Of a stretch of 64,000 bases of DNA, positions 7,867-62,004 are shown piece by piece. The position numbers and the translations under genes were made by a program. Origin of the DNA: Nitrosomonas sp. (GTDB lineage: Bacteria; Pseudomonadota; Gammaproteobacteria; Burkholderiales; Nitrosomonadaceae); assembly GCA_024281675.1 (NCBI GenBank), contig JAMXAG010000008.1, forward strand, positions 17,737-81,736, in the 5' to 3' direction. The notes below the pieces were generated by a model, which was not told the origin of the DNA, did not search any database, and saw only the letters and a list, made by a program, of their open reading frames with translations. The first letter of the stretch is position 1. Each line of letters starts with the position of its first letter.

Positions 7867-7980
7867 TATCCAATAATCATAGCATTAAATTTATCTTCTA
7901 TGGCTTCGTCGAGTTCAGTATGACATTTGACTTTGTTAGCCGAGCTTTTATTAAACATATCATATCAACAGTTACCACTT

Positions 7981-30185: not shown

Positions 30186-30209
30186 ATATAACATTTTATA
30201 ACTTATAAT

Positions 30210-30805: not shown

Positions 30806-30854
30806 TACTCATCTTATTTTGTTCAATTTTCTTTGCCACCGCGAAGCGGGCTTG

Positions 30855-31029: not shown

Positions 31030-31125
31030 TGGCAAGTCAATCCGGCAAATCAAATACGAATTTTCTAAAGTGTTCAGATTATTGAACCGTCATTTGGCAT
31101 TATCTATCACTACGGAAAACTCACT

Positions 31126-31791: not shown

Positions 31792-31904
31792 AAAATCATA
31801 ATTATTCCTAAAAAAATAAATATATTTCTATTTTTCTAGCATCTTTTTTTACACCATCATTTAATGCAAATTGATCTCGTATTCACTAACTTACGAGGTC
31901 AATC

Positions 31905-32099
31905 ATGCAAAACCCTTTACTCACGACTAAACAAGCCGCACAAATCTTAGGCGTCAGCACCGCATTCCTGGAGCGAGACCGCTGGGCTGGAGCGCGGGTG
32001 CCTTTCGTCAAAATAGGCTCACGGGCAGTTCGCTATCGCCATAGCGATCTGCTCGCCTATATTGAATCCTGTCTCTGTCAATCCACCAGTCAGTACTGA
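31905..32099 (+). CDS. AlpA/excisionase-like HTH protein
   Basis: [14 protein letters not shown]...[22 protein letters not shown]; 64 aa. Confidence 0.85.
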
Positions 32100-32107
32100 G
32101 GTGTATC

Positions 32108-36804: not shown

Positions 36805-37710
36805 TTAAGCAGCGAGTAGATTTGCATAGTACTGCTGCGAAAATTGTGCAGGCGATAAATAACCTAATTTTTCTTGCTTGCGCTGTCGGTTATAGAATAT
36901 TTCGATATATTCGGTAATCTCCTGAATGGCTTGTTGCCGTGTTTTGAATCTCCGATGATGCACCAGTTCGGTTTTAAGTATCCCCCAGAAGCTTTCCATC
37001 GGCGCATTATCATAGCAGTCGCCCTTGCGGCTCATGGAGGCGATCATGCCAAATTGTTGCAATAAATTCCGGTAATCGTGTGCACAGTATTGACTACCTT
37101 GATCTGAATGAGCAATGAGCCCCTTATCCGGATGTTTATTTGCAGTTGCGCGAAATAATGCCTGTATAACCAGGCTCTTTGTCATTTTCTCATTCATGGC
37201 ATAGCCCACCAGTTCGCCATTAAATAGATCTTTTATTCCAGCCAAGTACAACCAGCCCTCATCTGTAGGAATATAAGTGATGTCACTGACCCACACTTTA
37301 CCAGGTGCATTAACAGAAAATTCCCGTTTCAGAATATTGGGCGCAACCGGTAAATTATGTTTAGAATCGGTCGTCACCTTGAATTTTAGCTTTTGCTTAC
37401 AACGCAAACCCAATTTCCTGCGCAATGTTCGAACACGGTATGGTGTGGCTTGTACTCCGTGATCCGCCAAATCATGATGCAAGCGCTTTGCACTGTAGGT
37501 CTCTCGTGTACGTTGGTGTGCGGCCAGTATTTCTATTTCCAGCCTTCTATTCTCCCGCTTACGTTTACAAAGCGGGCGCGTTCTTTGAGCATGAAAGCCG
37601 CTCTCGGAAACATTCAATACTCGACACATGAGCCCAATCGAATAGCTTCGTCGCATCGATTCAATCAAACCGTATCTCACCGCGACTCCTTGGCGAAATA
37701 CGTCGCACAC
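36805..37710 (-). CDS. IS3 transposase OrfB (DDE integrase core)
   Basis: WVSDITYI, HSDQGSQY, SRKGDCYDNAPMESFW, YIEIFYNRQR. Confidence 0.93.
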   Translation of the reverse strand: MCDVFRQGVAVRYGLIESMRRSYSIGLMCRVLNVSESGFHAQRTRPLCKRKRENRRLEIEILAAHQRTRETYSAKRLHHDLADHGVQATPYRVRTLRRKLGLRCKQKLKFKVTTDSKHNLPVAPNILKREFSVNAPGKVWVSDITYIPTDEGWLYLAGIKDLFNGELVGYAMNEKMTKSLVIQALFRATANKHPDKGLIAHSDQGSQYCAHDYRNLLQQFGMIASMSRKGDCYDNAPMESFWGILKTELVHHRRFKTRQQAIQEITEYIEIFYNRQRKQEKLGYLSPAQFSQQYYANLLAA

Positions 37711-37976
37711 TTTTTTATAAAATCACGCTCCATCTTCACTTCTGCTAATTCACGTTTAACTCTGGATAGCTCTAACTCAAGTTCAGTCAGCGGCTTATGA
37801 TGCTTGCCTACTGTAATGAGTTCTCCTCGTTTGTCAGCATAAACCCAATTCTTTAGTGTCCCCTGGGGTAACGACAGCCGTTTTGCTGCTTCAACCAGAG
37901 TCAATCCGCTTTCTTTGAAAAATTTAACTGATTCCTTCCGAAATTCCTGACTATATTGTGTGCGGGGTAATTCCAT
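37677..37976 (-). CDS. IS3 transposase OrfA (HTH)
   Basis: YSQEFRKESVK...AAKRLSLPQGTLKNW...LKRELAEVKMERDFIKK; -1 overlap with OrfB. Confidence 0.9.
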   Translation of the reverse strand: MELPRTQYSQEFRKESVKFFKESGLTLVEAAKRLSLPQGTLKNWVYADKRGELITVGKHHKPLTELELELSRVKRELAEVKMERDFIKKCATYFAKESR

Positions 37977-39063
37977 TTTCATCCTCCATTTCATGTCTTC
38001 ATTTTATGAAACTTCGGACTCCTTGAAAATCAGCATACCTCATACCTTGAAGGACATCCGGTCAGGAGTGAAGACCGCAAAGCAAACCCCGACTTCGATT
38101 TCAACCGTCGCCCAGACAAACGTCTCGATCATCGCCATCACCTGATTGATGCGATTACACTGGCATTGACCTCGCGCAGTTTGTTTCAGCAAATGGCGAA
38201 GAAATACAAAACTGCCGCCGAAAAGATGCAAACGTGTGAGGGAGAAACACAGGAAGAACGCGAACGCCGCATCAAGAATGAAACACGGCTGCGACTTGAA
38301 GTGCCTGAACCGCCTTTTCGCAATGTGCGTGCTGCTGCACTTGATGCCATGCGCGAGTGCAATATTTCTATAAAACCGGATCGCTACCCTGATGGTGCAC
38401 TGTTCAAGGATACAGCCTACGGAATAGCGCAGCGAGATGGTGAAGACAGGTTACGACTTACTCTACGCCAGCCCGTCGCTGGATTGGGCAAGGTTCAAGG
38501 AAAAACAAATTTAGAGGCCGCGCGTAAAGCCATTGCAAAAATCATCAGCAATGACGTGCAGTGTATTGTTACCGACACATTTGAGGATCGCATTGCTAGG
38601 GGCATGGAAGCTGGAGATGCACTTGCTTTGCCTATCCGGCATCCGCTCTATGATAAACCAATTCGCAAAGTGCGTTGCTTTGAAACCTATGCAGAAGATG
38701 CACAACCCATTGGCTTCAACAGCCGCCGCGGTGAGCACCGCAAATATCTTATCAATGCAGGGTATGCCTATTTGGAGCTTTACACCGACAGATCAAGAGA
38801 ACCCCGACTTGTGAAAATCCGTGATGCGATGCGAAAAAAAGGAACGCCTACTCCCCAAAATGCAAAGTGGATTTACAAAGGAGATGTTGTAAAGGATTCT
38901 AAAGATAATAAACTCTATCGAGTGGGCTACTTCAAGTCTGAAGGAGTTATTGCTCTCATTCCAATTTTCGACCCACGCTCATTCGACAAAATTTCAGAAA
39001 GTAATGCTGGAAAGAAAAAAATTGCGTTTACTCAAGCTGCAAAACGTTTAACACTGATTAACG

Positions 39064-40011
39064 ATGTCTGAACAGCGCATCCTCGTCATCGAAAATCCCG
39101 CCCACCTGCGCATAGACACGGGGCGGTTGAAAATTGAGCGTGACGGTTTTGACCATGTATTTGTCTCGCCTGATGATGTGGCAGTACTTTGCCTCGAACA
39201 CCACACAGTCACACTCTCAGTCGCCGTCTTGCGTGCACTTGCCGAAGCCGGAGCAGCAGTGATGGTCACCGATACGCGACACATGCCTTGCGCCATGCAG
39301 ATTCCGCTCGCCGCCACAGGCTTGGATGCGGGTAGGCTGCGTCAGCAAATTGCACTGGATACCAGCGAGAAACGTGGCGAGTTATGGCAACAATTGATCT
39401 CCACAAAGTTATCTATGCAGGCTCACGCCTTGCGCGGGCTGCAACGTAAGGGAGCATTGCGCCTGGAGCGTCTCGCAGCACAAGTGCAACATAACGACAA
39501 AAGCAACGCGGAAGGTCAAGGTGCAAAACACTATTGGAATAACCTGTTCCCAGAGACTTTTAAGCGCAGCAAGGAAGGTGCAGAAGACCCACTGAACGTT
39601 CGCCTCAACTATGGCTATGCTGTGCTGCGCGCCATGATTGCCCGCTCGTTGGTTTCAGCCGGACTCAATGGCACATTGGGCTTGGGACATCGCAATGCGG
39701 GCAATGCATTCAACTTGGCGGACGACTTCATTGAGCCGTATCGCTTTCTGGTGGATGTGCATCTGGCTGATGATGCCGATACCTGGAGTGAAGCGCCAGA
39801 ATTTGACAGCCGCGCCAAGCGCTATTTGCTTGGATTCGTCAAACGTCCTGTGCGCATGGCGGGGCAGGATATGCGGCTGCACGCCGCAATTGATACGAGT
39901 ATCGTCAGCTTCGTGCGTATTCTTGAAGGCAAAGGCAAAAAGCTGGTGCTTCCCGAAGGACTGGTTATTGATAGGGATAATAAGGAATGGCAATCAACGG
40001 ATGGCGCGTAA
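39064..40011 (+). CDS. cas1: Type II CRISPR-associated endonuclease Cas1
   Basis: EGQGAKHYW, NVRLNYGYAVLRA, LGLGHRN, NLADDFIEPYR; overlaps the cas9 stop. Confidence 0.95.
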   Translation: MSEQRILVIENPAHLRIDTGRLKIERDGFDHVFVSPDDVAVLCLEHHTVTLSVAVLRALAEAGAAVMVTDTRHMPCAMQIPLAATGLDAGRLRQQIALDTSEKRGELWQQLISTKLSMQAHALRGLQRKGALRLERLAAQVQHNDKSNAEGQGAKHYWNNLFPETFKRSKEGAEDPLNVRLNYGYAVLRAMIARSLVSAGLNGTLGLGHRNAGNAFNLADDFIEPYRFLVDVHLADDADTWSEAPEFDSRAKRYLLGFVKRPVRMAGQDMRLHAAIDTSIVSFVRILEGKGKKLVLPEGLVIDRDNKEWQSTDGA

Positions 40012-40319
40012 TGTGGGTGATTGCAGTTTATGATTGCCCGATGATAGAACGTGAGGAACGGCGCGATTACACGCTGTTCCGCAAAAGCCTGTTGCAAGAA
40101 AATTTCTTCCAGTTGCAAAACTCGCTCTATGTGCGCCACTTCCCTACCATGGCGGTTGCCGAAGCCACGATACAGCGCATCCGTTTAGGCATCCCAGCAG
40201 GTGCACAAGTGGCATTTTTCCTCGTAACTGATAAACAGTACGCGATGACTAGAGAGTTTTTTGGTAATCGACCCACAAAGAAAAAGCCCAATTTGCCAGA
40301 GCAAATCGAGCTTTTTTAA
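39987..40319 (+). CDS. cas2: CRISPR-associated Cas2
   Basis: MWVIAVYDCP...FRKSLLQENFFQLQNSLYVR...VTDKQY; no csn2 or cas4 follows, so type II-C. Confidence 0.93.
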   Translation: MAINGWRVMWVIAVYDCPMIEREERRDYTLFRKSLLQENFFQLQNSLYVRHFPTMAVAEATIQRIRLGIPAGAQVAFFLVTDKQYAMTREFFGNRPTKKKPNLPEQIELF

Positions 40320-40358
40320 AATTATTTAATTTTAAAAACAACTGACTATATACAATCT

Positions 40359-41516
40359 AGTTTATCAGGTATTCCGATGGTGGGGTGTCGGAACTCGTTG
40401 AGTATTATGAAGCCACACATTGGTAGTTTATCAGGTATTCCGATGGTGGGGTGTCGGAACAAATAATCCTGCCTATATGAAAAATGTTTAAGTTTATCAG
40501 GTATTCCGATGGTGGGGTGTCGGAACGAAAAAATGCGCCGATATCACCAACTCTAAAGTTTATCAGGTATTCCGATGGTGGGGTGTCGGAACAATAGCCG
40601 ATAAGGTAATACCGGCTATTGAAGTTTATCAGGTATTCCGATGGTGGGGTGTCGGAACATGAATCGAGAGATGAAGCGGTATGCTGGAAGTTTATCAGGT
40701 ATTCCGATGGTGGGGTGTCGGAACCTGTCTTTCGCTGTTATTTCAATCCGTGTTAGTTTATCAGGTATTCCGATGGTGGGGTGTCGGAACGAATAACAAT
40801 TGGTATGTCTGCACCCTCAGAGTTTATCAGGTATTCCGATGGTGGGGTGTCGGAACGCGAGCGTGATGTTAGCTACGGCATCGCCGAGTTTATCAGGTAT
40901 TCCGATGGTGGGGTGTCGGAACATTTAAACCCCCATGAGTCTGAGTGAAAATAGTTTATCAGGTATTCCGATGGTGGGGTGTCGGAACCTGTAACCCTAG
41001 ATGGTAAAAGTGTATCTTAGTTTATCAGGTATTCCGATGGTGGGGTGTCGGAACGTAGAGGGTGAGGTAGAACTACAGGAAAATAGTTTATCAGGTATTC
41101 CGATGGTGGGGTGTCGGAACTACCTTCGCAAGCATCCTTTTTGTTCTCATAGTTTATCAGGTATTCCGATGGTGGGGTGTCGGAACCACTAACTGTAGCT
41201 GACTCAGGCGACGTGTAGTTTATCAGGTATTCCGATGGTGGGGTGTCGGAACACACATTATTGGCTACTCTTAAACTTGAAGAGTTTATCAGGTATTCCG
41301 ATGGTGGGGTGTCGGAACATAGTTTCGTGCGTTTCAACCGCTTGAATCAGTTTATCAGGTATTCCGATGGTGGGGTGTCGGAACACCAAGCTATGACTGG
41401 TCATGCCCGGTGAGAGTTTATCAGGTATTCCGATGGTGGGGTGTCGGAACCATCGCTAGCCGTTAAATCCTCCTCCTCGAAGTTTATCAGGTATTCCGAT
41501 GGTGGGGTGTCGGAAC
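40359..41516 (-). CRISPR. CRISPR array: 18 identical 36-bp repeats, 17 spacers of 30 bp
   Basis: Plus-strand repeat agtttatcaggtattccgatggtggggtgtcggaac with an exact 66-bp period. Predicted sense strand is minus (GTTCCGAC...TGATAAACT), from tracrRNA pairing and the embedded extended -10. Confidence 0.99.
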
Positions 41517-41756
41517 AATACCGTCGATGGAATAAATAGCCGTTCGCAGCGCTCGGAATTAATAGTGAGAGATTTCTAGAGGTTCCAGATTTTATCGGAA
41601 AGATGAAGTACCAAATAAAGAAAGCGCAAATTAGTACCAAATAGGGCGATTTGTTATAGAGATTACTTATCTTTTTCGTATGTTCAGTCTATTATCTACA
41701 TTATGCCTACATCTAAATGTTATAAGATTATTATCTTATGCAACCTATAGATTCTA

Positions 41757-43775: not shown

Positions 43776-46700
43776 ATGTGGCTAAAGTTTTCATTCAATT
43801 TTAAATCTCTCTTTTCTATTCTCCTGTATTACGTATTAGCTCTTCAGCTTTTTTTGCCCACTAATGGCTACTCAAAAACTCAGCCATCTGTGTTCAAAGC
43901 TATTGATACCGCACGCACTGCCATCGATCGCAGCAAGATGGAAGAAACTCAGCGGCAGATGGCTATTGATCATCTTGATGTCGCACGTGCGGATGTACAA
44001 GAAGCAGAAACACTGAAGGAGCGCTTAACCACTCTACGTGCTGAAACTATAGAACAACCGACACAGATGGATCGCCTGCGTAAGGCTCTGGCGACAAACC
44101 GTGAACAGGAGCTGCTCGAATGGTCCAAGCGCATACCTGCTGGCGCGGATGGTGAAACTCTTGAACGAATCTTGGAACAGGAACGCAGCATCATCACCGA
44201 TCTGCGCGCACAGATCGATACAATCGGTGTAGAAATAGCTCTGGCATTATCACGTCCGGCTCAGGCAACAGAAGAAATGACTACATTGCGCCAACGTATC
44301 GAAGAATTATTAGTACCCATCGTGGCTCAGAAAGATGAGCCTGTCGCGCTATTCGAAGCGCGGCGCCTGCGCCGCAGCAGCGAGCAACAGCGGTTACAAA
44401 CAACACTGGAGTTACGCCTTGCCGAGCAAGATACCGCCACACAGCGCCAACGTCTACATGAACTGAAATTACGCGAGCTGCGCTTTCGGCTAGAGCTACA
44501 TGAAAAAAAAGTGGAACATTTACAACAGCTCATTGCCAGCCGTGGCCGGCATGAACTGGAATCATTGGTCGAGCAATTGATCAAACGAGAACAAGAGTTG
44601 GTAGGTGGCATCCCCATTCTGGCATCCGCCGCCACAGCGAATCGTGCAATTGGTGAAGAACTCATACAACAAAATGAGCTTTTGGCGCGAGATCGCAACG
44701 CTCTAGCCAGCTTCGACCAAGCTCGCGAGCACATTGAAGTAACTTTGCGTGATAGCCGAACCCGACTTGATATAGGTGGAGCCAGCGAACGTATCGGTCG
44801 CTGGTTGTGGAGTGAACGGCGCCGACTGGAATCGTCAGAAAGACTCGAGCTTCTCCTGAAACAAATCCGCAATAACCTGGCTGATTTACGGCTGGAGCGA
44901 GTAGTGCTAAGCGAACGGCAACGAAAGCTGCTCGATATCAGCGCTGCCGCTCGTACGCTGACCGAAGCGCACCCGGCGGCAAACAACGAGGGATACATCG
45001 ATGATAAAGCCCAAAAGCTACTGTTCCCTCTGTTGCAAAAACGCACAGATCTGTTAATCCTGCTGGAACCTTTGCTTCAGCGGCGTATTTCGACACTGGA
45101 AAAGAGTGAACAGGCTCTACAAAAGCAGATCCAAACTACCCAGGAGCTGCAGCAGATGCTCGATCGCCATCTGTTATGGATTCGCAGTCACAGCATCATC
45201 AATTGGGACTGGTTACAAAAAATGCCAGAAGGATTATTCGATTTGATCAAGCCTTCACGTTTCACTACCACGATGGAGCTGAACTTTAGTAACTTCCTTC
45301 AGCAACCCATACCCTGGGTAGGTAGTTTACTACTAGTATTGGTCTTATTAGAAGTCCGGCGTCGCGCTCCAATCCGTATCGAAGCTCTGGCAATGGATAC
45401 CTATCAGATTCATAAAGACAGTTATCAAGCAACCCTCAAAACACTAGGATGGACCTTGCTGGCTTCTCTGCCAGGGCCAATCGCATTGGCTTTGTTAGGG
45501 CAACTGCTACAAAGTGTCGGCAATCTCGGGCGATTCAGTTATTCCCTAGGCCAAGCCTGCATGCTACTAGTATTTCCCCTACTGGCCGTACAACTGCTGC
45601 GCTGGACTAGTATCGAGCGTGGACTTGGTCACGCTCATTTTCGCTGGACTCGACAACGTTGCGCCGCATTACGCCAATGGTTACCAGGAATCGCTGCTGT
45701 CGTACTGCCGCTATACTTTATCAGTTCGATGGCATTTATTCGAAGGATTGACTCGGCCATCGACGTGCAAGCGCGTTTGGCTATCGTACTAAGTTGTGTG
45801 GTTCTTGCATGGGCTCTCTGGCGCCTTCTGGATGTGGGCCGTCTCTGGGTCATTAGAGGTGTGGTCAGCGAACCATCGACTCAGCGCAAGCTGTTGCGTT
45901 TGCTACTACCTGCATCGCTACTGGCCAGTTTTAACATAATTGTTGTGGTTGCCATTCTACTGGGGTTGCTTGCACGCTGGTTTCTTCTCGGAGAGCGGCG
46001 TCTGGCACTACGCCGATTCGAGGAACGTCGCTCGGCAGCAGCTGAGACTACTAAAGAATCCGGCGAAGTAACGCCGGAACCGGAAGAAATCATTACTCTG
46101 GAACAGGTCAACACTCAGACCCGGCGATTATTACGGGTGCTGCGTCGAAGCTTGTTGGTGCTCGGCCTGATCTGGGTCTGGGCTGACATACTGCCAGCCA
46201 TTGCACGTCTGGACGAGATTGGACTATGGAACTTCAGCGAGATTGGACCCGATGGTGCAATGACACAGCAACCCGTCACGCTGATGGCAGTGTTGCTGGG
46301 TATCTTTGTACTGGCCCTGACCACGGCAGGTGCCAGAAACTTGCCAGGATTGATCGAGATCAGCCTGTTGTCACATATCCGTATTGACGCAGCCTCACGT
46401 TATGCCATCACCAGCGTATTTCGCTACGTCATCGTAATTTGGCGGTACACTGGCGGGATTGAGCCTTCTGGGTATGCGCTGGTCGCAACTACAATGGATG
46501 GCTGCAGCTTTGACGGTTGGGCTTGGATTTGGTTTGCAAGAAATTTTTGCCAACTTTGTATCCGGGATCATCCTACTGTTTGAACGACCGTTTCGAGTTG
46601 GGGATGTAATCACAATCGGCGATTTTTCCGGTCGGATCATTCGTATCCGTACTCGTGCTACCACCGTTCTTGATTTCGATAACAAGGAAATCATGATACC

Positions 46701-47121
46701 CAATAAAACTTTCATTACTGGCCATCTGATTAATTGGACATTGACCGATACGATCACTCGCGTTGCCATCCGGGTGGGAGTTGCATACGGCACTGATACA
46801 AACAAAGTACGTGCATTGCTATTGCAGATTGCCAGGGAAGATGAACGGGTACTGGCGGAACCAGAACCATCGTGCTGGTTCCTGACTTTCGGTGCAAGTT
46901 CTCTTGATTTTGAGCTTCGTGTATTCGTAAACACAGTCAATCACAGGATGGAAGTTCAAAGCGCGCTCAACACAAGAATCGCAACATTATTCCCTGAACA
47001 CAACATCGAGATCGCCTTTCCACAACTCGATTTGCATGTGCGCGATCTGCCACCAGAGTTGTTACGCAGTCAAATGACCTATGCAATAAATGAAAAAATA
47101 AAGACAGATCAATCAGCTTGA
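43776..47121 (+). pseudogene. MscK/MscS-family mechanosensitive channel, frameshifted at ~46438-46440
   Basis: Coiled-coil N-terminus and TM region in ORF 43776-46583; MscS core (GLGFGLQEIFANFVSG, FRVGD, IPNK, IAFPQ) in the +1 frame. Removing one T in attt|ggc restores VIVIGGTLAGLSLLG. Confidence 0.85.
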
Positions 47122-50445: not shown

Positions 50446-51048
50446 TCAAACCTTAAAATAATCTTCCAGCAAATCCTGACAACATTGCTTAACCGGCGCA
50501 GATGATTTCTCTATTTGCATTCGCAGTAAAGCTCCTTGCCAGGCATTGATCAGCAAATCAGCCATTGCTTCGGATGATTTGTCTGACCTGACTGTTCCTT
50601 GCTGTTGCGCTTTGGCCAATCCGGACTGCAATAAATCTCGATAGCGTCTGACGGCCGATTGCAGGGATTGCTGACAAACATCATTGGTGCTGCCGATTTC
50701 TCCCATAAGATTACCCAGCAGGCAACCGCCTTTAAATTGGTTATTTTCGAGTTCCACAATTAGCTCGTCAAAATATCGCCTGATTGCGTTTAGCGCGTCC
50801 GTGTCGGCTTTGCTCAGATGTGTGGATAACCTCACAATAAAAGGATCAATATAGTGCTGAATGACCTCAGCACCAAAATCCTCTTTGCTGTCGAAATAAT
50901 TATAGAAAGAACCCTTTGGAACGCTCACCGCATCGAGAATTTCCTGCAACCCGGTACCGTGATAACCTTGCTCAATAAATAAAGCGACGCCTTGGTTTAA
51001 CAGGTTTTCTCTATTGAGTTCTTTTTGGATCGATTTAGCCATACTCAT
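50446..51048 (-). CDS. TetR-family regulator (NemR/AcuR-like)
   Basis: GYHGTGLQEILDAVSVPKGSFYNYFDSKE; GGCLLGNL. Confidence 0.92.
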   Translation of the reverse strand: MSMAKSIQKELNRENLLNQGVALFIEQGYHGTGLQEILDAVSVPKGSFYNYFDSKEDFGAEVIQHYIDPFIVRLSTHLSKADTDALNAIRRYFDELIVELENNQFKGGCLLGNLMGEIGSTNDVCQQSLQSAVRRYRDLLQSGLAKAQQQGTVRSDKSSEAMADLLINAWQGALLRMQIEKSSAPVKQCCQDLLEDYFKV

Positions 51049-51755: not shown

Positions 51756-54104
51756 ATGACTTACGAACATCACAAGGATATACAGCATAAACACGATCAT
51801 CACACGAATCACCCTGATATAGCGACCGATCCTGTCTGCGGCATGCATGTCGATACGTCTACAGAAAAATACTGTGCAGAACATGATCATCAAGTTTACT
51901 ATTTCTGCTCTGCCCATTGTCACGGCAAATTCGTAGCTGCACCCGGAACCTATTCAACCAGCAAGCTCCAAACCGGAGAATCTACACCCAGCGCTATCTA
52001 TACCTGCCCCATGCACCCGGAAGTCCGGCAAACCGGGCCGGGAAACTGTCCGATTTGCGGCATGGCATTAGAACCGGCGGAAGTATCACTCAGTACTGGA
52101 CCGAGTGCGGAACTCACGGACATGAGCCGCCGCTTCGGGATTGGCCTCATATTGACCGCACCCGTTTTTATCCTGGAAATGGGCGGTCATCTGATCGGGC
52201 TGGCACATTTACTATCTCCCCAAACTTCCAATTGGCTGCAACTGCTGCTGGCAACACCAGTCGTGTGGTGGTCAGGATGGCCGTTTTTTGTACGCGGCTG
52301 GCAATCGATAACAAACCGCGCGCTGAACATGTTCACGCTCATTGCGATGGGTACCGGTGTGGCATGGATCTATAGCATCATTGCCACCGTTGCGCCTGAT
52401 CTCTTTCCCGATGCTTTTCGCAGCAGTGATGGATCGGTCGCAGTTTATTTCGAGGCTACGGCGGTTATCACCGTGCTGGTGTTATTGGGCCAAGTGCTCG
52501 AATTGCGAGCGCGCGAACGTACCTCTGGTGCGATTAAAGCCTTGCTCAATTTGTCACCCACGACGGCCCGTCGTCTTGGCGACGACGATGCAGAAGAAGA
52601 GATCAATCTGAATCAGGTAATGGTGGGTAATCGCCTACGGGTACGTCCCGGCGACCAGATACCGGTCGATGGCAAAGTGATCGAAGGCGGTTCGAATGTC
52701 GATGAATCGATGGTAACCGGTGAATCCATGCCGGTTCGCAAGCAATCCGGCGATAAGGTGATCGGCGGTACCATCAATGGTCAGGGCAGTTTTGTGATGC
52801 GCGCGGAAAAAGTTGGGCGTGATACGATGTTGGCGCAGATTGTTCGCATGGTATCGGATGCGCAGCGCTCGCGCGCACCAATTCAGCGCTTGGCAGACAT
52901 CGTTGCTGGCTGGTTCGTTCCGGCAGTCATTCTGATCGCCATACTTGCTTTTTCCGCCTGGGCGGTCTGGGGCCCGCCGCCAGCCATGAGTTATGCCTTG
53001 ATCGTAGCCGTCAGCGTGCTAATCATCGCTTGTCCGTGCGCATTGGGTCTGGCGACACCAATGTCAATCATGGTCGGCATCGGACGGGGTGCGACCGAAG
53101 GCATTCTGATCAAAAATGCCGAAGCATTGGAACTCATGGAAAAGATCGACACTATCGTGATTGACAAGACGGGTACGCTGACCGAAGGTAAACCCAAAGT
53201 CACCGCAATTCGCGCTGCTGGCAATATCGACGAGAACGAGCTGCTGCATCTTGCGGCCAGCTTGGAGCAGGGAAGCGAACACCCTTTGGCTGCCGCTATC
53301 GTTGCCGCCGCCAAGGAACGATCAATTGTGCTGGCCAAGGCAACCGACTTTGACTCGCCGACTGGCAAAGGTGTGCTCGGCAATGTCAATAATCACCGGA
53401 TTGTCCTAGGTAATACCAAGTTTCTTGCAGAACTGAATATCGATACCCAGGTGTTGGAAACGCAAGCAGATGAACTGCGTCAGAATGGGGCGACAGTGAT
53501 CTTCGTGGCGGTCGATGGAGCGACTGCCGGTATTGTCGCTATCGCCGATCCGGTGAAGGAATCGACACCCGCTGCCATTGATGCTCTGCACGCCGATGGC
53601 ATCCGCATCGTTATGTTGACCGGGGACAACCGCATTACAGCTGAAGCAGTCGCTCGACAACTAGGCATCGACGAAGTGGAAGCGGAAGTGTTACCCGATC
53701 AGAAAGCGGCAATCGTAACGCGATTGCGCGAACAAGGGCGAGTGGTCGCAATGGCGGGTGATGGTGTCAACGATGCTCCGGCTTTGGCTACCGCCGATGT
53801 TGGCATTGCCATGGGCACAGGCACCGATGTTGCGATTGAAAGCGCGGGGGTAACCTTGCTGCGCGGCGATCTGCTGGGCATTGTCCGGGCACGGCGCCTG
53901 TCCGAAGCAACCATGCGTAACATCCGCCAAAATCTGTTCTTCGCCTTTATCTACAATGCAGCGGGCATACCGATCGCAGCCGGAGTACTGTATCCGTTCT
54001 TCGGCATTTTGCTGTCACCGATTTTTGCTGCGGCTGCGATGGCGCTATCTTCGGTCAGCGTGATCGGCAATGCATTACGGCTACGCACAACCAAGCTGGA
54101 GTAA
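51756..54104 (+). CDS. copA: Cu(I)/Ag(I)-translocating P1B ATPase with YHS and CPMHP domains
   Basis: DPVCGM...[45 protein letters not shown]. Confidence 0.9.
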
Positions 54105-54220: not shown

Positions 54221-54823
54221 ATGGCAAAAATTCTTGTCTTGTATTACAGCATGTATGGTCATATCGAAATTATGGCCAACGCGGTAGCTGAAGGTGCACG
54301 CAGCGTCGAAAATGCCGAGGTTGCCGTTAAACGCGTCCCCGAACTCATGTCGGAAGAAGTGGCGCGAAAAGTCGGTGCCAAGCTTGACCAGCCAGCACCC
54401 ATTGCAACTGTTGATGAGCTGCCAAATTATGATGCCATTATCTTCGGTACGCCTACACGCTTTGGCAATATGTGCGCGCAAATGCGCAATTTTCTTGATC
54501 AAACAGGTCGATTATGGCTTAACGGTGGACTGATCGGCAAAGCAGGTAGCGTATTTACGTCTACCGGCACCCAGCACGGCGGCCAGGAAACCACGATAAC
54601 CTCGTTTCATACCACCTTGCTCCATCATGGCATGATCATCGTAGGTGTTCCCTATTCCTGCCAGGAGATCATGAACATGAGTGAAATTACCGGCGGCTCA
54701 CCGTATGGAGCAAGCACGCTGGCCGGTGGCGATGGCAAACGTCAACCGTCAGACAACGAAATAAAAATAGCACACTTTCAGGGCGCTCATGTCGCCAAAG
54801 TGGCCAACAAGCTATCCCACTGA
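54221..54823 (+). CDS. wrbA: NAD(P)H:quinone oxidoreductase WrbA
   Basis: [35 protein letters not shown]. Confidence 0.95.
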
Positions 54824-54882: not shown

Positions 54883-55701
54883 ATGAGCCCGATATCACAA
54901 GCGCTTTCGCCCGTTTTGTTTTTACCGCACGGTGGTGGGCCATTACCGATTCTTGGTGATAAAGGGCATGACAAGATGGTTGCTTTTCTGCAGAAAATCA
55001 CAAGTGATCTGAGCGAGCCAGCAGCGATTTTAGTCATTAGCGCTCACTGGGAAGAGGAACAAGCAACAATAACCAGTAATAGCTCCCCCGGAATAATCTA
55101 TGATTATTATGGATTTCCTGCCGAGGCCTACCAAATTCAATATGCAGCGCCTGGCAATTCCGGATTGGCGCATGAAATTTGCACACAGTTAACAGCGAGC
55201 GGAGTGCCGGCAAGACTTGATGAACAACGGGGTTTTGATCATGGGTTATTTGTACCGCTCAAGCTGATGTTTCCACAAGCCCAGATTCCTTGTCTCCAGT
55301 TATCATTACTGAAAAACTTAAATCCTCGATTGCATATTGCACTTGGAAAAGCGATTGCATTTTTACGCGAGAGGAATATCCTGATTATCGGTTCAGGCAT
55401 GTCATTTCACAATTTGAAAACATTTTTTTCGAACGATATCGATAGCAGCAAAGAAAATGAGGGATTTGATCACTGGTTGATTGAAACTTGTACCGATCCG
55501 GAGATTCTATCTGCAGCGCGTGAACAGCGATTGATTGAGTGGGAAAAGGCACCGTTTGCCCGATTTTGTCATCCGAGAGAAGAACATTTATTGCCTTTGC
55601 ATGTTTGCTACGGTGTCGCCTGTGCCGACACCCCAGCTGCAAAGGTGGTATTTAATGAGGAGGTGATGGGGAAAAAAGTGACGAGCTTCCTGTGGCAGTA
55701 G
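54883..55701 (+). CDS. LigB/DODA-type extradiol ring-cleavage dioxygenase
   Basis: FLPHGGGP, VISAHWE, YDYYGFP, RGFDHG, GSGMSFHN, HPREEHLLPL. Confidence 0.88.
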   Translation: MSPISQALSPVLFLPHGGGPLPILGDKGHDKMVAFLQKITSDLSEPAAILVISAHWEEEQATITSNSSPGIIYDYYGFPAEAYQIQYAAPGNSGLAHEICTQLTASGVPARLDEQRGFDHGLFVPLKLMFPQAQIPCLQLSLLKNLNPRLHIALGKAIAFLRERNILIIGSGMSFHNLKTFFSNDIDSSKENEGFDHWLIETCTDPEILSAAREQRLIEWEKAPFARFCHPREEHLLPLHVCYGVACADTPAAKVVFNEEVMGKKVTSFLWQ

Positions 55702-55815
55702 AATCATGGTATTTTGATGCTGATTTTGATTGTTGGCCATCAGCCATGAGTATTTGAATTAACCGCACCAAACTGCCAGCTTATTATCATCTCATTGAAA
55801 TACTGGAGAATCAGT

Positions 55816-56145
55816 ATGGAAAAAACAAAATTGAAAAATTGGTTATTCGGCTTCATGTTCACTGTCATTCTTGCGACAAGCAATGCATGGTCAGCGCAAG
55901 ATGAGAAAAACAATCCAGGGTTTGCGTGGAAGGATGGCGCAGAAATTTACGCCAAAATTTGCGCATATTGTCATGAAGCCCAAGTCGGGCCGCAAATTCG
56001 CAATCGCGACCTTCCCGCAGCTTATATCCGTGCAGTCGTTCGCAATGGTAACCGAGCCATGCCGGCTTTTCGTCCTTCAGAAATCGACGACGAATCATTA
56101 GTCAAACTGGCGGATTTCATTTCAAAAAAAGAAGCTCAACATTAA
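55816..56145 (+). CDS. pchC: p-Cresol methylhydroxylase-type cytochrome c subunit
   Basis: Signal peptide, CAYCH, VRNGNRAMPAFRPSEIDD; upstream of pchX and pchF. Confidence 0.8.
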   Translation: MEKTKLKNWLFGFMFTVILATSNAWSAQDEKNNPGFAWKDGAEIYAKICAYCHEAQVGPQIRNRDLPAAYIRAVVRNGNRAMPAFRPSEIDDESLVKLADFISKKEAQH

Positions 56146-56159
56146 GGAGGGCACATTCC

Positions 56160-57110
56160 ATGGATGAAACGCGACGTAGCTTCATCAAAGGCATGCTGAC
56201 TGGTGGAACCCTGTTGGTCTTCGGCATTCCTGCCACCACTCAAGCACTATCCACCAGCCAAATACCTTCCGGTAATATGCGCGATTGTCACTTGTTACTG
56301 GGAAATACCCCCATAGACGAAGCCTTTGCCAAAGGTGCCCAAGCCGCGTGTACCCGTTTCAGCAGCTTCAACCAAGAAGGTACATTACCAGCATTTCAAT
56401 TAGCAGATGAGCTATTAACCAACCCTCTGCATATAGCCGATTTATTGACACAATCCCGGAATATGCGCTGGGTAGCTCTCATGGACTATGCCAATGCGGC
56501 CATATTCACTGAGTTGGTGCGAAACTCTGAGCGGCATCTCCTTGCATTAGGTTCGCATATGTTCGTATCCAGCGATAGCGCCGTCCTCCCGCAGCGCCAT
56601 GTGTGGACTACCGCATCACCGGCATACAGCGCCGGAGGATTGCTGGCCTCCCTGCTTACTCAAAGTCAGCATGATTTCTCTATCGTCGAAAATTTTCTTG
56701 AACAAACGGCGGTTGATAAAGCAATGAGCGATTCATCATTAGCGGGGTTTTCGTCTTTTCGGCTGGCTGAGCAACCCGCGATGCATTTGTATTGTGCCGG
56801 AGTATCTCCGCTGGAAGCCAGTCAACAGATTGGCTGGAAAGCATCAGAAAATTGGCAACCGGTATTATCCCGAGGCGATGAATCTTCCATCGACCAAGAC
56901 AAAACCATAATGGATGCGGCAATTGAACATCCCCGATTTGACAACTGGATAGAAGCTACCGGTTTTGCGGTTGTGGCAACTGCATTGAGTATGGGAATAC
57001 AGCAAGCATCTTGCTCCAACCGCGCATTTGTCCATCGATCGAATCAACGCAATTCAAACCATCAAGGGTTATCGGGACAACAGTTCGTTTCATTTGTCAT
57101 CGACGTGTAG
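56160..57110 (+). CDS. PchX-like accessory protein (twin-arginine-like N-terminus)
   Basis: TRRSFIKGML; sits between the cytochrome and flavoprotein genes as in pchCXF. Confidence 0.65.
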   Translation: MDETRRSFIKGMLTGGTLLVFGIPATTQALSTSQIPSGNMRDCHLLLGNTPIDEAFAKGAQAACTRFSSFNQEGTLPAFQLADELLTNPLHIADLLTQSRNMRWVALMDYANAAIFTELVRNSERHLLALGSHMFVSSDSAVLPQRHVWTTASPAYSAGGLLASLLTQSQHDFSIVENFLEQTAVDKAMSDSSLAGFSSFRLAEQPAMHLYCAGVSPLEASQQIGWKASENWQPVLSRGDESSIDQDKTIMDAAIEHPRFDNWIEATGFAVVATALSMGIQQASCSNRAFVHRSNQRNSNHQGLSGQQFVSFVIDV

Positions 57111-57121
57111 GAGAAAACAGC

Positions 57122-58666
57122 ATGACCAGTCAATATATCGCATTGCCCAAAGGTGTGTCGGAAAAAAACTTCGATGCGGCCATCCGTGATTTTCGCAAAG
57201 TACTGGGCGACGCTGCTGTACTCACCAGTGCTGAACAGCTTGCACCTTACATCAAGACGATGATGCCGGTTTCCGATGCAGACCATACGCCATCCGCGGC
57301 ATTACTGGCCACAACCGTCGAGCAAATCCAGAAAATCGTTGCGATTTGCAATCAATACAAAGTACCGGTTTGGATGATTTCCACCGGAAAAAATCTGGGT
57401 TATGGCTCGGCAGCTCCGGCAGAGCGTGGTCAGGTGGTGCTTGATCTCAAGCGCATGAATCGCATTCTCGAAGTGGATAAGGATTTGGCCTTTGCCTTGG
57501 TCGAACCGGGTGTAACCTATCAACAACTCTACGATTACATCAAAGAACACAAGCTGGGTTTATGGCTATCCATGCCCGCCCCTTCTGCCATCGCAGGACC
57601 GGTTGGTAACACGCTGGATCGCGGCGTGGGTTACACGCCCTATGGCGAGCACTTTTTGTTCGCTTGCGGCATGGAGGTCGTGCTGGCGAATGGAGAAGTG
57701 TTGCGTACCGGCATGGGTTCAGTGCCCAATTCCAACACCTGGCAGGTATTCAAATGGGGCTATGGCCCCTATCTGGATGGCATTTTTACCCAATCCAACT
57801 ATGGCATCGTCACTAAATTCGGTTTCTGGTTAATGCCGGAACCGCCAGCATTCAAGCCGTTTGTGATCCAGTACCAGCACGAAGAAGACATCGTGGAGAT
57901 CGTCGAAACGATTCGCCCGCTGCGCATCAGCGGTGTGATTCCCAACGCTGTAGTCATTGCCCATGCGCTCTATGAGGCTCCGGTAAAAGCCAAGCGCAGT
58001 GATTATGTGTCCGGGCCGGGTTCAATTCCGGATGAAGCGGTGTATCGTATTATGAAAGATCACAAACTGGGGATCTGGAACGTCTATGCTGCGCTTTATG
58101 GCACGCAGGAGCAGATTGATGTGAACTGGAACATCGTCACACAAGCGTTCACTCAATCGGGCAAAGCAAAAATCATGACAGAACAGGAAGCAGGTGATGA
58201 TCCGGCATTTGCTTATCGCGCCAAGCTCATGCGCGGAGAAATGACGCTCACGGAATTTTCGTTGTATAACTGGCGTGGAGGTGGCGGGTCAATGTGGTTT
58301 GCGCCCGTCTCTCAAGCGCGCGGCAGTGAAACCTTGAAACAAATGGCTCTGACCAAGCAGATATTGGCCAAGTACGGACTGGATTATTCCGGCGAATTTA
58401 TCGTCGGAATGCGCGATATGCATCACATTGTCGATGTACTGTACGACAAAACCGACCCAGAGCAGACGAAGGCGGCCTATCAATGTTTCGAGGAATTGCT
58501 GACCGAATTCTCCGCGCGCGGGTATGGAACTTATCGCGTCAATACGGCATTTATGGATAAAGTCGCCGAAACCTATGGCCCAGTGCAGAGAAATGTTCAC
58601 AAAATACTTAAAAAAGCACTGGATCCCAATGGCATTCTTGCACCGGGAAAATCAGGCATACGCTAG
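57122..58666 (+). CDS. pchF: p-Cresol methylhydroxylase-type flavoprotein (VAO/PCMH family)
   Basis: ISTGKNLGYGSAAP, PVGNTLDRGVGYTPYGEH, FKWGYGP, LYNWRGGGGSMWFAPVS (covalent-FAD Tyr region), DPNGILAPGKSG. Confidence 0.9.
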   Translation: MTSQYIALPKGVSEKNFDAAIRDFRKVLGDAAVLTSAEQLAPYIKTMMPVSDADHTPSAALLATTVEQIQKIVAICNQYKVPVWMISTGKNLGYGSAAPAERGQVVLDLKRMNRILEVDKDLAFALVEPGVTYQQLYDYIKEHKLGLWLSMPAPSAIAGPVGNTLDRGVGYTPYGEHFLFACGMEVVLANGEVLRTGMGSVPNSNTWQVFKWGYGPYLDGIFTQSNYGIVTKFGFWLMPEPPAFKPFVIQYQHEEDIVEIVETIRPLRISGVIPNAVVIAHALYEAPVKAKRSDYVSGPGSIPDEAVYRIMKDHKLGIWNVYAALYGTQEQIDVNWNIVTQAFTQSGKAKIMTEQEAGDDPAFAYRAKLMRGEMTLTEFSLYNWRGGGGSMWFAPVSQARGSETLKQMALTKQILAKYGLDYSGEFIVGMRDMHHIVDVLYDKTDPEQTKAAYQCFEELLTEFSARGYGTYRVNTAFMDKVAETYGPVQRNVHKILKKALDPNGILAPGKSGIR

Positions 58667-58716
58667 TTTCATTTTGACCTTGAGCAAGACCTAACGATTC
58701 CAAAGCGGAGGTACCC

Positions 58717-59826
58717 GTGAAAAAAATCAAGGCAGCCGTCGTCCGTCAGAAAGGCGGGCCTTTTCAGATTGAAGATCTGATGCAGGATGATCCGCGATCC
58801 GATGAAGTGCGCGTCCGCATGGTAGCGACGGGAATGTGCCATACCGATATGGTTGCGCGCGATCAGCTCTACGAAGTGCCTCTGCCAGTGGTATTGGGGC
58901 ATGAAGGCTCGGGCGTAGTCGAGCAGATTGGCAGCCATGTGAAGAAAGTCGCAGTTGGCGACCATGTGGTGCTGACCTATATGTGGTGCGGGCACTGCAA
59001 GTCCTGCCTACGCGGTGATTTGACCTATTGCGAGCAATTTTATGCGCTGAATTTCAATGGCGCACGCGAAGATGGCAGCACGTCGACCTTTACAACCGGC
59101 AACACACCAGAACCGATCCACGATCATTTCTTCGGACAATCGTCGTTTGGCACCTTTGCGCTGGTGCATGAGCGCAACGTCATCAAAGTTCCCAAAGATG
59201 CGCCCTTGGAGCTTCTTGGCCCACTGGGTTGCGGCATTCAGACCGGTGCCGGAGCCGTCATAAACGCACTCAAAGTCAGTCCGGGCAGCAGTTTTGCAGC
59301 TTTTGGCGGCGGCGCAGTGGGACTCAGTGCTGTGATGGCGGCACGCGCTGCCGGTGCTACGACCATCATCTCGGCCGATGTGGTTCCTTCGCGCTTGGCC
59401 CTGGCGATGGAACTCGGGGCAACCCATACCATTAACAGCCGGGAAACCGACCCGGTCGAAGCGGTTCGCAAAATAACGCATGGCGGCGCTGATTTTACTC
59501 TGGAATCGAGCGGGCGCCCTGCTGTACTGCGTCAAGCCATTGATGCATTGGCTATCCGTGGGACATGCGGCATTGTCGGCGCACCGGCCTTGGGTACCGA
59601 AGCGAGTTTCGATGTAAACGGAGTGATGACGATAGGAAAACGCATTATCGGAATCATTGAAGGCGATAGTAAACCGGATCTTTTTATTCCAGCACTGGTT
59701 GAGCTTTATCAGCAGGGAAGATTTCCTTTTGACAAGCTGGTGAGGTTTTATTCCCTCGATCAAATCAATCAGGCCGCTGAAGATAGTGAGAAGGGCATCA
59801 CGATTAAACCGATCATTCGACTCTAA
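58717..59826 (+). CDS. Zn-dependent aryl/benzyl-alcohol dehydrogenase
   Basis: GMCHTD, GHEG, CGHCKSC...[22 protein letters not shown]. Confidence 0.88.
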
Positions 59827-59888
59827 TCAACACTTGTGTACTTCACTTTGAGTGGATTTTCCAAGAAAACACGCATGAGGAATGCCTT

Positions 59889-61391
59889 ATGGAAAAGAAA
59901 TCAGCATCCCAATCGCCTTATTCAAATTTCGACCAACTATTCATCAATGGCCAATGGCGTCACGGCAAGGGAGCAAAGATTCTGCGCGACTTCAATCCCT
60001 ATGACGGCAGCACGCTGGTCGAAATACCCCATGCCAATCGCGATGACTTGGACGAAGCCTATCGCGGCGGCGCCAAGGCGCAGCATGCATGGGCGGCGTT
60101 AATACCGGGCGAGCGGGCAGCCATCATGCGCCGCGCGGCGCAAATCATGGAAGCACGGCGCGAAGAAATTGTATCCTGGATCATTCATGAGTCAGGCGGC
60201 ACGCGCATCAAAGCCAACCTGGAATGGAACGCCGTGCATGGTGTGCTTCTGGAGGCAACTACCCTGCCCTATTTGGTGGAGGGCCGGATTCTTCCGGCAG
60301 ACATTCCCGGTAAGGAAAGCCGCATGTATCGCAAACCCGTGGGGGTTGTCGGGGTGATCAGTCCCTGGAATTGGCCATTCCAGCTCACTGCCCGTTCTGC
60401 AGCGCCCGCACTCGCTGTCGGTAATGCTGTCGTGGTCAAGCCAGCCAGCGATACTCCGGTAACGGGCGGACTGCTGTTTGCAAAAATCCTTGAAGAAGCG
60501 GGATTGCCTGCGGGTGTACTCAGCATTATCGTCGGTGCGGGCAGCGAGATTGGCGATGCCTTTGTCACCCACCCCATTCCTCGTGTCATATCGTTTACCG
60601 GCTCCACACCGGTTGGCCGCAATATCGCAAGATTGGCAGCCGAAGGACCCATGCTGAAGCGACTGGAATTGGAATTGGGTGGAAATGGCCCGTTTGTGGT
60701 ATTGAATGATGCCGATATGGGACAAGCCGTGGAAGCTGCCGTGTTTGGTAAGTTTCTGCACCAGGGCCAGACTTGCATGAGCGTTAACCGCTTCATTATT
60801 GAAGATCGGATTCACGATGAGTTTGTCGAGCGCTTTGCTGATCGGGTACGTCAACTGAAAGTGGGCGATCCGGACGCAGCGGATACCATGATTGGTCCAA
60901 TTATCAATGAATCCCAGTTGAATGGTCTGCAGCAAAGGATCCACGACGCCATTTCATCGGGAGCCCATCAAATGGTGGGGGGTGACGCACAAGGCCTGGT
61001 GCTTCCCCCCCATGTATTCTCTCAAGTCACCAATCAGATGCCATTGGCACAAACGGAATCGTTCGGCCCCATCGCACCGATCATACGTGCGCGCAATGAA
61101 ACGGATGCATTGAATATCGCCAACGATACCGACCTTGGGTTGGCTGCCGCGGTGTTTACGCAAGATGTCGAACGCGGCCTTCGGTTTGCACAACAACTCG
61201 AATCGGGCATGGCGCATATCAATGACCAGCCGGTCAATGACTTACCTTATAACCCCTTCGGCGGTGAAAAGAACTCAGGAGTCGGTCGTTTCAATGGCGT
61301 CTGGGCCGTCGCAGCATTCACGACCGATCAATGGATAACCGTTCAGCATACGCCGCGTCACTACCCTTTTGACGCGCGAGTCATTAAATGA
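59889..61391 (+). CDS. Aromatic aldehyde dehydrogenase (PchA/4-hydroxybenzaldehyde dehydrogenase-like)
   Basis: [41 protein letters not shown]. Confidence 0.88.
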
Positions 61392-61548: not shown

Positions 61549-61782
61549 ATGAAGATAAGAGTCAGTACTATGGAAGAGGAAGACAGGATTTCCAAACATG
61601 CCACGGCCAATTTACGCTATTATGAGCAAGCTGCACAAGAAGCACAAAAACAGGCTCATTTTCATCGAAAGATAGCGGCAGAATTGTTGCAACACGAATA
61701 TGCAAAGCCGGCAGCAGCACTTGGCCAACACGGTGATCATGCAAGCGAGACCGAGCTAAATTCAGATGTTTACAATTTGTAA
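61549..61782 (+). CDS. Small hypothetical helical protein (possibly a fragment)
   Basis: 77-aa ORF rich in Ala, Gln and His; no family recognised. Confidence 0.3.
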   Translation: MKIRVSTMEEEDRISKHATANLRYYEQAAQEAQKQAHFHRKIAAELLQHEYAKPAAALGQHGDHASETELNSDVYNL

Positions 61783-62004
61783 ACACCTGAAAAATTGACT
61801 TTGACTTTGAATTTAACAAAGTAAAGAACCGCAGCAGGAATATTTGATTCAAAGCAGAGCGTTTTCAAAATGCCCAAGGTAATAAAAACCTTGGGCATTT
61901 AATTTTCCTTACTGGTACCTACTCATCCAAATCTGATCATGCAGTTCTATATTGACTGAATATTTGATCAGACCAGAGGTGAGATCACTATTTGATTTAA
62001 GAAT

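Follow-up and report, generated by a model that had tools for sequence, protein, structure and literature searches.

Positions 55816–61391 of the 64,000-nucleotide Nitrosomonas sp. stretch analyzed here (contig JAMXAG010000008.1; the window) carry a gene cluster predicted to convert p-cresol to 4-hydroxybenzoate, starting with p-cresol methylhydroxylase (PCMH). The cluster probably constitutes a working PCMH pathway in a chemolithoautotrophic ammonia oxidizer, where it would serve detoxification and supply auxiliary reductant rather than provide carbon for growth. A first-pass annotation of the same DNA had suggested several roles for the cluster, and detoxification with extra reductant is the best reading among them. 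The annotation had also named five genes in the order pchC, pchX, pchF, an aryl-alcohol dehydrogenase (ADH), and a PchA-like aldehyde dehydrogenase (ALDH). All five are real and intact open reading frames (ORFs) that point in one direction and fill the interval, with spacers of 14, 11, 50, and 62 bp:

55816..56145, + strand: pchC, c-type cytochrome subunit of PCMH (1dii_C, PF13442)
56160..57110, + strand: pchX, conserved protein with a twin-arginine (Tat) leader (assigned by position and homology)
57122..58666, + strand: pchF, PCMH flavoprotein (4-cresol dehydrogenase, hydroxylating; 1dii_A)
58717..59826, + strand: predicted NAD-dependent Zn aryl (benzyl) alcohol dehydrogenase (5tnx, 1f8f)
59889..61391, + strand: predicted PchA-like 4-hydroxybenzaldehyde dehydrogenase (9jw2, Pfam Aldedh)

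PchF aligns with the Pseudomonas putida PCMH flavoprotein 1dii_A with E = 1.6e-232 and 63% identity in a global alignment, and contains the Pfam domains FAD_binding_4 (PF01565, 2.8e-28) and FAD-oxidase_C (PF02913, 5.3e-09). PchF residues Tyr94, Glu176, Glu378, His434, Tyr471, and Arg472 correspond to P. putida Tyr95, Glu177, Glu380, His436, Tyr473, and Arg474, which we take from the 1DII/1DIQ structures to be the phenolate-binding and catalytic residues. The tyrosine that covalently links the flavin adenine dinucleotide (FAD), a feature claimed for PchF at the outset, is retained as PchF Tyr382, which aligns with 1dii_A Tyr384 within LYNWRGGGGSMWFAPV. The 8-alpha-O-tyrosyl FAD-link motif L-Y-NWRGGGGSMWFAPV, described in a preprint on PCMH operons, is identical in the two proteins. 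PchF has no signal peptide. PchC is a 109-aa protein, called as a gene of this length on six public contigs, that matches Pfam Cytochrome_CBB3 (PF13442) at 2.4e-20 and has a CAYCH heme motif behind a hydrophobic, Sec-like leader. Among solved structures, its sole strong match is 1dii_C, the cytochrome subunit of PCMH (E = 2.9e-19). ARAGORN places a tRNA-Ile(GAT) at 57966–58040, inside pchF; Rfam detects no tRNA in the window at the gathering threshold, and the call was rejected as a false positive.

The two dehydrogenases downstream of pchF have solved relatives that act on benzyl compounds. The ADH has ADH_N and ADH_zinc_N Pfam domains, and its nearest solved structures are 5tnx (1.6e-158) and the Acinetobacter benzyl alcohol dehydrogenase 1f8f (3.6e-142). 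The translation shows the Zn-ligand motifs GMCHTD, GHEGSG, and CGHCKSC...C, plus GGGAVG, and 58717–59826 is assigned by sequence to the XylB-type Zn-dependent medium-chain aryl/benzyl alcohol dehydrogenases. The ALDH matches the solved NADP+ 4-hydroxybenzaldehyde dehydrogenase 9jw2 over 486 residues (E = 6.3e-201), with an identity of ~63% as estimated from the printed alignment. It scores 3.4e-153 against Pfam Aldedh, contains the catalytic motifs ELGG (Glu) and QGQTCMS (Cys), and falls below every NCBIfam equivalog cut-off. Homology thus bears out the original proposal of a gene set that would lead from p-cresol to 4-hydroxybenzoate.

PchX is a 316-aa protein with the twin-arginine leader MDETRRSFIKG and no match in Pfam, NCBIfam, or the PDB sequences. 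Arg5 and Arg6 do not vary across 117 homologues, every one of which is labeled hypothetical. The ORF at 56160–57110 is assigned to the pchX family by position and homology, because Tat-leader proteins at the equivalent position of heterotroph operons are picked up by a profile of nitrifier PchX sequences (E = 1e-13 to 1e-35). The family is tiny, with 181 representatives (E <=0.001) among 1.84 billion proteins, and evolves fast (39–52% identity between the window and N. europaea, Nitrosospira, and Nitrospira). An AlphaFold2 model from 117 sequences describes an alpha/beta protein with a pLDDT of 74 and a pTM of 0.76; an earlier model from 24 sequences (pLDDT 49) was too poor to use. A Foldseek search of the better model against the PDB returned no match at E <=0.001, the best having an E of 0.02 and a TM of ~0.2. 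PchX may act as the Tat escort of PchF, which would cross the membrane FAD-loaded and leaderless as a hitchhiker; this idea follows from PchF lacking a leader while its heme partner must mature outside the cytoplasm. The Novosphingobium pNL2 plasmid cluster, the best plasmid match, is without pchX.

The proposed mechanism starts with PchF and PchC, which by homology would form a flavocytochrome c that dehydrogenates a 4-alkylphenol, with p-cresol as the model substrate, to the quinone methide. Water addition would then give 4-hydroxybenzyl alcohol and subsequently 4-hydroxybenzaldehyde, and electrons would pass from the covalent FAD of PchF to the PchC heme. The Sec-type leader of PchC, the invariant Tat leader of PchX, and the leaderless PchF point to the periplasm as the site of these reactions. 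From PchC the electrons would pass to the pool of soluble cytochrome c and to a terminal oxidase, the level at which the respiratory chain of nitrifiers already operates. The Zn-dependent ADH and the PchA-like ALDH, both also leaderless, would complete the oxidation to 4-hydroxybenzoate in the cytoplasm. At most two NAD(P)H could be gained in these two steps, a reductant for which nitrifiers otherwise depend on costly reverse electron flow. The module would also suit a nitrifier in that it makes no demand on carbon assimilation. The 4-hydroxybenzoate is probably excreted, or used in trace amounts, because the cluster comes without ring-hydroxylating or beta-ketoadipate genes. The pay-off would be the removal of toxic phenols and phenolic aldehydes together with a gain of reductant. 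Both kinds of compound are represented among the documented inhibitors of ammonia oxidizers by the 4-alkylphenol MHPP, or methyl 3-(4-hydroxyphenyl)propionate, and by the phenolic aldehyde vanillin.

The host had been guessed to be an ammonia oxidizer, and the taxonomy check agrees. A scan for PchF orthologues using one genome per species found a 99% match on the chromosome of a Nitrosomonas metagenome-assembled genome (MAG) and 96–97% matches in N. ureae Nm13, N. supralitoralis, and many Nitrosomonas MAGs. Genes outside the pch cluster give the same picture. The TPR protein, small Dabb protein, TetR, and Rnk of Nitrosomonas sp. CP45 are 96–98% identical to those of the window flanks, with their order kept, and the CopA proteins of the two are 89% identical. 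The host is assigned to the N. ureae/oligotropha group of Nitrosomonas because of these PchF matches and the identity and order of the flanking genes. Identical PchF copies occur on contigs from public sequencing runs, and the RNA runs containing the region are labeled wastewater, bioreactor, sludge, and sediment metagenomes.

PchF orthologues are spread across both guilds of nitrifiers. They were found in the ammonia oxidizers N. europaea, N. eutropha, N. communis, N. nitrosa, Nitrosospira, and Nitrosovibrio, and in the nitrite oxidizers Ca. Nitrotoga and Ca. Nitrospira defluvii. The copy of Ca. Nitrospira defluvii is on a complete chromosome. In a neighbor-joining tree the nitrifier PchF proteins form one clade, in which Nitrotoga is nested in Nitrosomonas and Nitrospira is basal. 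The sister group consists of PchF from Rhodocyclaceae and Oxalobacteraceae, and P. putida lies outside. Members of the nitrifier clade from Nitrosomonas, Nitrosospira, Nitrotoga, and Nitrospira are 78–97% identical, and four positions only separate nitrifier from heterotroph PchF, one of them four residues before His434. The presence of the clade in nitrite oxidizers, which are without ammonia monooxygenase (AMO), weakens the earlier suggestion that co-oxidation products of AMO are the main substrates.

Synonymous divergence was used to distinguish old from recent sharing. When the window is compared with N. europaea, Nitrosospira, and Nitrospira, the four-fold degenerate sites of every cluster gene are 35–50% identical, at or near saturation. 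In the same comparison, protein identity is 85–93% for PchF, 83–88% for the ADH, and 53–76% for PchC. Since synonymous sites are saturated while the PchF and ADH proteins stay alike, the comparison indicates that sharing of the cluster across phyla is old and that very strong purifying selection acts on PchF and the ADH. The saturated four-fold sites exclude recent horizontal transfer as the cause of the 87–93% identity across phyla. The GC content at third codon positions (GC3) is 0.56–0.57 in PchF, the ADH, and the ALDH, compared to 0.31–0.49 in most other window genes.

Gene architecture was compared across 78 loci from Nitrosomonas, Nitrotoga, Nitrosospira, Nitrospira, and heterotroph-type clusters. 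The pchC-X-F order is held in every assessable nitrifier locus, and the ADH lies right after pchF in 56 of the 61 assessable nitrifier loci versus none of 13 heterotroph-type loci. The counts by lineage, with assessable loci as denominators, are as follows:

ADH directly 3' of pchF: Nitrosomonas 26/26, Nitrotoga 2/3, Nitrosospira 16/18, Nitrospira 12/14, heterotroph-type 0/13
PchA-like ALDH (at least 50% identity): Nitrosomonas 15/23, Nitrotoga 0/3, Nitrosospira 2/16, Nitrospira 3/11, heterotroph-type 0/10
LigB upstream: Nitrosomonas 19/24, Nitrotoga 0/3, Nitrosospira 0/13, Nitrospira 0/14, heterotroph-type 0/7
WrbA upstream: Nitrosomonas 14/22, Nitrotoga 0/3, Nitrosospira 0/13, Nitrospira 0/14, heterotroph-type 0/7

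A different ALDH, ~40% identical to that of the window, is present in seven of ten heterotroph-type loci. The N. europaea cluster reads LigB-pchCXF-ADH followed by a convergent TonB receptor, with no adjoining PchA-like ALDH. The architecture counts and the N. europaea cluster together define pchCXF plus the ADH as the conserved nitrifier unit; the ALDH is patchy, and the window holds the fullest version. Neighbors of the Nitrospira clusters include FMN-type quinone reductases, cytochromes c, a heme-copper oxidase, a glyoxalase, a pirin, and DoxX, and an HxlR-type regulator lies upstream of the cluster in Nitrosospira multiformis.

Two further features of individual nitrifier loci were observed. 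Some nitrifiers have two pchCXF copies on separate contigs: loci L021 and L023 in Nitrosomonas sp. JL21, L037 and L061 in Nitrosospira SMAG_U8746, and the pair L071 and L072. In one Nitrospira sp. (L087/L088, ~1500–9545), pch lies directly 3' of a heme-copper oxidase gene with a fused COX1/FixO product and of genes for three cytochromes c, an ABM monooxygenase, and an FMN reductase. This neighborhood hints at a dedicated path for electrons from PCMH to oxygen.

Transcription of the region was evaluated from metatranscriptome contigs of three bioreactor runs (X5–X7) and one sediment run (X9). The features that flank the five genes are:

54221..54823, + strand: wrbA, NAD(P)H:quinone oxidoreductase (NCBIfam NF002999)
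54883..55701, + strand: LigB-family class III extradiol dioxygenase, YgiD/4,5-DOPA-dioxygenase-like (Pfam LigB)
55759..55787, + strand: sigma-70-like promoter match 5' of pchC (TTAACC-17-TATTAT, 9/12 matches)
61570..61782, + strand: small 70-aa ORF in the ALDH–terminator gap (gene call on public contigs)
61868..61900, + strand: terminator-like hairpin with a 13-bp stem and T-rich tail, the probable 3' end of the transcription unit

Contig depth across 54.2–61.7 kb, from wrbA to just beyond the ALDH, is 5–15 in the bioreactors and 15–97 in the sediment. Depth is near zero over copA (51.4–54.2 kb) and over 62.1–63.5 kb, and the drop to ~0 from 62.1 kb coincides with the hairpin at 61868–61900. 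The housekeeping genes holA, lptE, leuS, and lpdA of the window have depths of 2–8 in the bioreactors and ~0 in the sediment. Coverage contrasts sharply between the region and its flanks, which speaks for wrbA through the ALDH being truly transcribed as a block. The 70-aa ORF is covered by RNA contigs in X5 and X6 and has no Pfam match.

The sigma-70-like match 5' of pchC is a match to the consensus, and such sites are no more common in the region than in shuffled sequence. No sigma-54 activator was found among the window ORFs by the Pfam scan, and no -24/-12 promoter site (TGGCAC-N5-TTGC) lies near the cluster. The Novosphingobium pNL2 cluster, unlike that of the window, does carry one.

The copA gene upstream of the transcribed block encodes a CopA-type copper P-type ATPase (51756–54104) with YHS and HMBD domains, and has the highest GC (0.547) and GC3 (0.572) of the region. 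It is preceded by a divergent TetR regulator gene (50446–51048) and is barely covered by the RNA contigs that cover pch.

The genes immediately upstream of pchC are on the same strand as the pch genes, with gaps of 59 bp between wrbA and ligB and 114 bp between ligB and pchC. WrbA scores 357 bits against NCBIfam NF002999 (cut-off 141). The LigB-type dioxygenase matches Pfam LigB (3.5e-30), PDB entry 8in2 (3.2e-42), and E. coli YgiD 2pw6 (1.8e-30), and its 135 bits against the NCBIfam 4,5-DOPA dioxygenase model NF007914 are under the cut-off of 233. WrbA and the YgiD-type dioxygenase fit a wider defense against phenol, quinone, and catechol stress. An AHSA1/glyoxalase-domain gene begins at ~63580 and extends past the window end according to the gene table of contig L001, on which a second glyoxalase-family gene comes next; both fit the electrophile-stress flavor of the neighborhood.

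The first-pass annotation had stated that the window holds no pobA, protocatechuate dioxygenase, or pchR. The Pfam scan supports this statement, having found no pobA and no intradiol or LigAB dioxygenase in the window ORFs. The annotation had overlooked the LigB/YgiD-type dioxygenase at 54883–55701, and "no protocatechuate dioxygenase" is true in the narrow sense only. The negative results for pobA, pca, and regulator genes hold for the window, in its ORFs of at least 150 aa that lie neither inside nor across a longer ORF. Ring-hydroxylating and beta-ketoadipate genes are likewise missing from the Pfam-scanned flanks of related loci, and neither the window nor these flanks contain an aromatic-acid transporter.

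Several points weigh against detoxification with auxiliary reductant as the function of the cluster. Contig depth is a crude measure of expression, and carry-over of DNA is possible. The adjoining LigB-type dioxygenase leaves room for some catechol ring cleavage. Many nitrifiers carry the ADH without the ALDH, which obscures the direction and purpose of the ADH step. Finally, electrons that enter at the level of cytochrome c cannot drive AMO directly and help only respiration or the supply of NAD(P)H.

The alternative that survives best, an unlikely one on balance, is that the true substrate is another para-substituted phenol and that the clade is a defense, specific to nitrifiers, against phenolic inhibitors. 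Such a substrate could be 4-ethylphenol, 4-hydroxybenzyl or vanillyl alcohol, chavicol, eugenol, or MHPP, and the VAO/PCMH family accepts many 4-alkylphenols. The nitrifiers have their own PchF clade with a signature ADH that is missing from the classical pch operons, one of the four clade-specific residues is close to His434, and ammonia oxidizers are inhibited by MHPP and vanillin. Set against this, the active-site residues are those of PCMH, with only the four positions differing between the clades, and the nearest solved ADH and ALDH enzymes use unsubstituted or 4-hydroxy benzyl compounds. The organism is also found mostly in wastewater, sludge, and bioreactor samples, environments in which p-cresol is common.

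There is little likelihood that the cluster exists to supply 4-hydroxybenzoate, the precursor of the ubiquinone ring, from environmental p-cresol or from an endogenous source such as tyrosine-cleaving radical-SAM enzymes. The window pathway does end at 4-hydroxybenzoate by homology, with no further catabolic genes in the window. The difficulty is the ALDH that would form this product, which is the least conserved part of a cluster whose pchCXF and ADH genes are nearly always kept: it adjoins 15 of the 23 clusters in Nitrosomonas, 2 of the 16 in Nitrosospira, 3 of the 11 in Nitrospira, and none of the 3 in Nitrotoga, and is not at the N. europaea cluster. Moreover, a trace need for a cofactor does not explain expression at or above the housekeeping level. 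Ubiquinone supply, one of the roles raised at first, is weakened by these observations.

Doubtful to a greater degree is the idea that the operon starts a growth-supporting, mixotrophic aromatic route whose ring steps are encoded elsewhere or carried out by AMO and a LigB-type dioxygenase. It draws on the LigB-family gene 5' of pchC, kept in 19 of the 24 Nitrosomonas loci. That enzyme is YgiD/DOPA-like, single-subunit, under its NCBIfam cut-off, and not LigAB, and it is missing from the Nitrosospira, Nitrotoga, and Nitrospira clusters. A pobA gene, genes of a meta- or ortho-pathway, and an aromatic-acid transporter are also missing from the window and the related flanks. A metabolic model of N. 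europaea has aromatic oxidation products excreted, the organism having no enzymes to mineralize them (PMC8853641). A horizontally acquired passenger without a role in the host, which the elevated GC3 of PchF, ADH, and ALDH and the span of the clade across phyla might suggest, is highly improbable given saturated synonymous sites with proteins 83–97% identical, a sign of long-term purifying selection, stable synteny within the lineage that includes the flanks, and transcription of the genes in situ.

The window cluster can be compared with the PCMH systems already described. The pchACXF genes of P. putida NCIMB 9866/9869 (pRA4000/pRA500), whose order is published according to the preprint on PCMH operons, share with the window a PchF at 63% identity, a homologous PchC, and the pchC-pchX-pchF order. 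The window differs in that the ALDH is downstream instead of upstream, a benzyl-alcohol-type Zn-ADH is inserted 3' of pchF, there is no sigma-54 regulator, the cluster is chromosomal in an autotroph host, and no protocatechuate pathway is nearby. The Rhodocyclaceae and Oxalobacteraceae operons of the sister clade (PchF 70–75% identical) share the pchC-X-F core with a Tat-leader PchX homologue; the preprint describes one of them, Tmz1t_1839–1842 of Thauera aminoaromatica, as cytochrome c, hypothetical protein, FAD oxidase, and ALDH. These operons have no ADH (0/13 heterotroph-type loci), their ALDH is of the other type (~40% identical to that of the window), and their hosts are aromatic-degrading heterotrophs. 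The clusters of the cultured nitrifiers N. ureae Nm13, N. europaea, N. eutropha, Nitrosospira multiformis, Ca. Nitrotoga fabula, and Ca. Nitrospira defluvii share the pchCXF-ADH core with a PchF at 87–97% identity and differ in the accessories, since the ALDH, LigB, and WrbA genes of the window are missing from many of them.

Vanillyl-alcohol oxidase (VAO), eugenol oxidase (EUGO), and related 4-alkylphenol oxidases share the fold and the quinone-methide chemistry on para-substituted phenols (PDB matches at E = 1e-116 to 1e-172); they use O2, have a His-linked FAD, and lack a cytochrome subunit. The window PchF is predicted to be a dehydrogenase because of its Tyr linkage and PchC partner. In the membrane-bound PCMH of Geobacter metallireducens (pcm cluster), a flavoprotein with the Tyr-linked-FAD motif oxidizes p-cresol anaerobically, and its coupling partner is a cytochrome bc1-like membrane complex; no counterpart of this complex was found with the window cluster.

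Other parts of the window were surveyed in passing. Positions 34384–41520 resemble a type II CRISPR-Cas locus. A Cas9-like ORF at 34384–36774 is only 796 aa long, with the Cas9 alpha lobe, HNH, and RuvC_III, and is followed on the opposite strand by an IS3-family transposase (36805–37710). Next come a 301-aa ORF (38166–39071) with no Pfam or PDB match, Cas1 (39064–40011), and a repeat array with a period of 66 at ~40359–41520. The insertion sequence may have split cas9, with the ORF at 38166–39071 as a candidate for the C-terminal part. A tyrosine integrase (28923–30185) and a P2 GPA-type replication protein (32108–33784) lie beside the CRISPR locus and suggest an integrated mobile element at 28923–33784. 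A MscK/KefA-like mechanosensitive channel extends over two overlapping frames (43776–46583 and 46459–47121), the mark of a frameshift or a sequencing error, and a 643-aa ORF at 7927–9858 has a short match to di-heme cytochrome c peroxidase/MauG at its N-terminus only.

The enzymes of the cluster are classical, orthologous clusters are already present in public nitrifier genomes, where some orthologues are annotated as 4-cresol dehydrogenase, and the effects of p-cresol on N. eutropha have been studied before, in a 2014 paper on p-cresol and the proteome of N. eutropha C91. That paper reportedly found induction of a cresol dehydrogenase and discussed changes in the tricarboxylic acid cycle. The searchable literature yielded no other relevant work linking cresol dehydrogenase to nitrifiers, and three points were not found in it: the guild-wide PchF clade, its signature ADH, and how strongly PchF and the ADH are selected. 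With textbook enzymology, the value of the system lies in ecology and physiology.

A broader proposal, put forward tentatively, is that pchCXF plus the aryl-ADH is a guild-level adaptation that was passed long ago among Nitrosomonadaceae, Nitrotoga, and Nitrospira and has been strongly selected since. It would link 4-alkylphenols and phenolic alcohols or aldehydes to periplasmic cytochrome c and to NAD(P)H without reverse electron flow, and it would disarm phenolic inhibitors of nitrification, including those made by plants. Phenolics impair nitrification in wastewater plants and in fertilized soils, and crops are being bred to contain plant-made phenolic inhibitors. If true, the proposal would bear on the persistence of, and resistance to, such inhibitors, on the fate of cresol in treatment plants, and on how strict "obligate" lithotrophy is. 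The cluster would also offer a tractable case of a catabolic module retained as a dead-end periplasmic electron donor.

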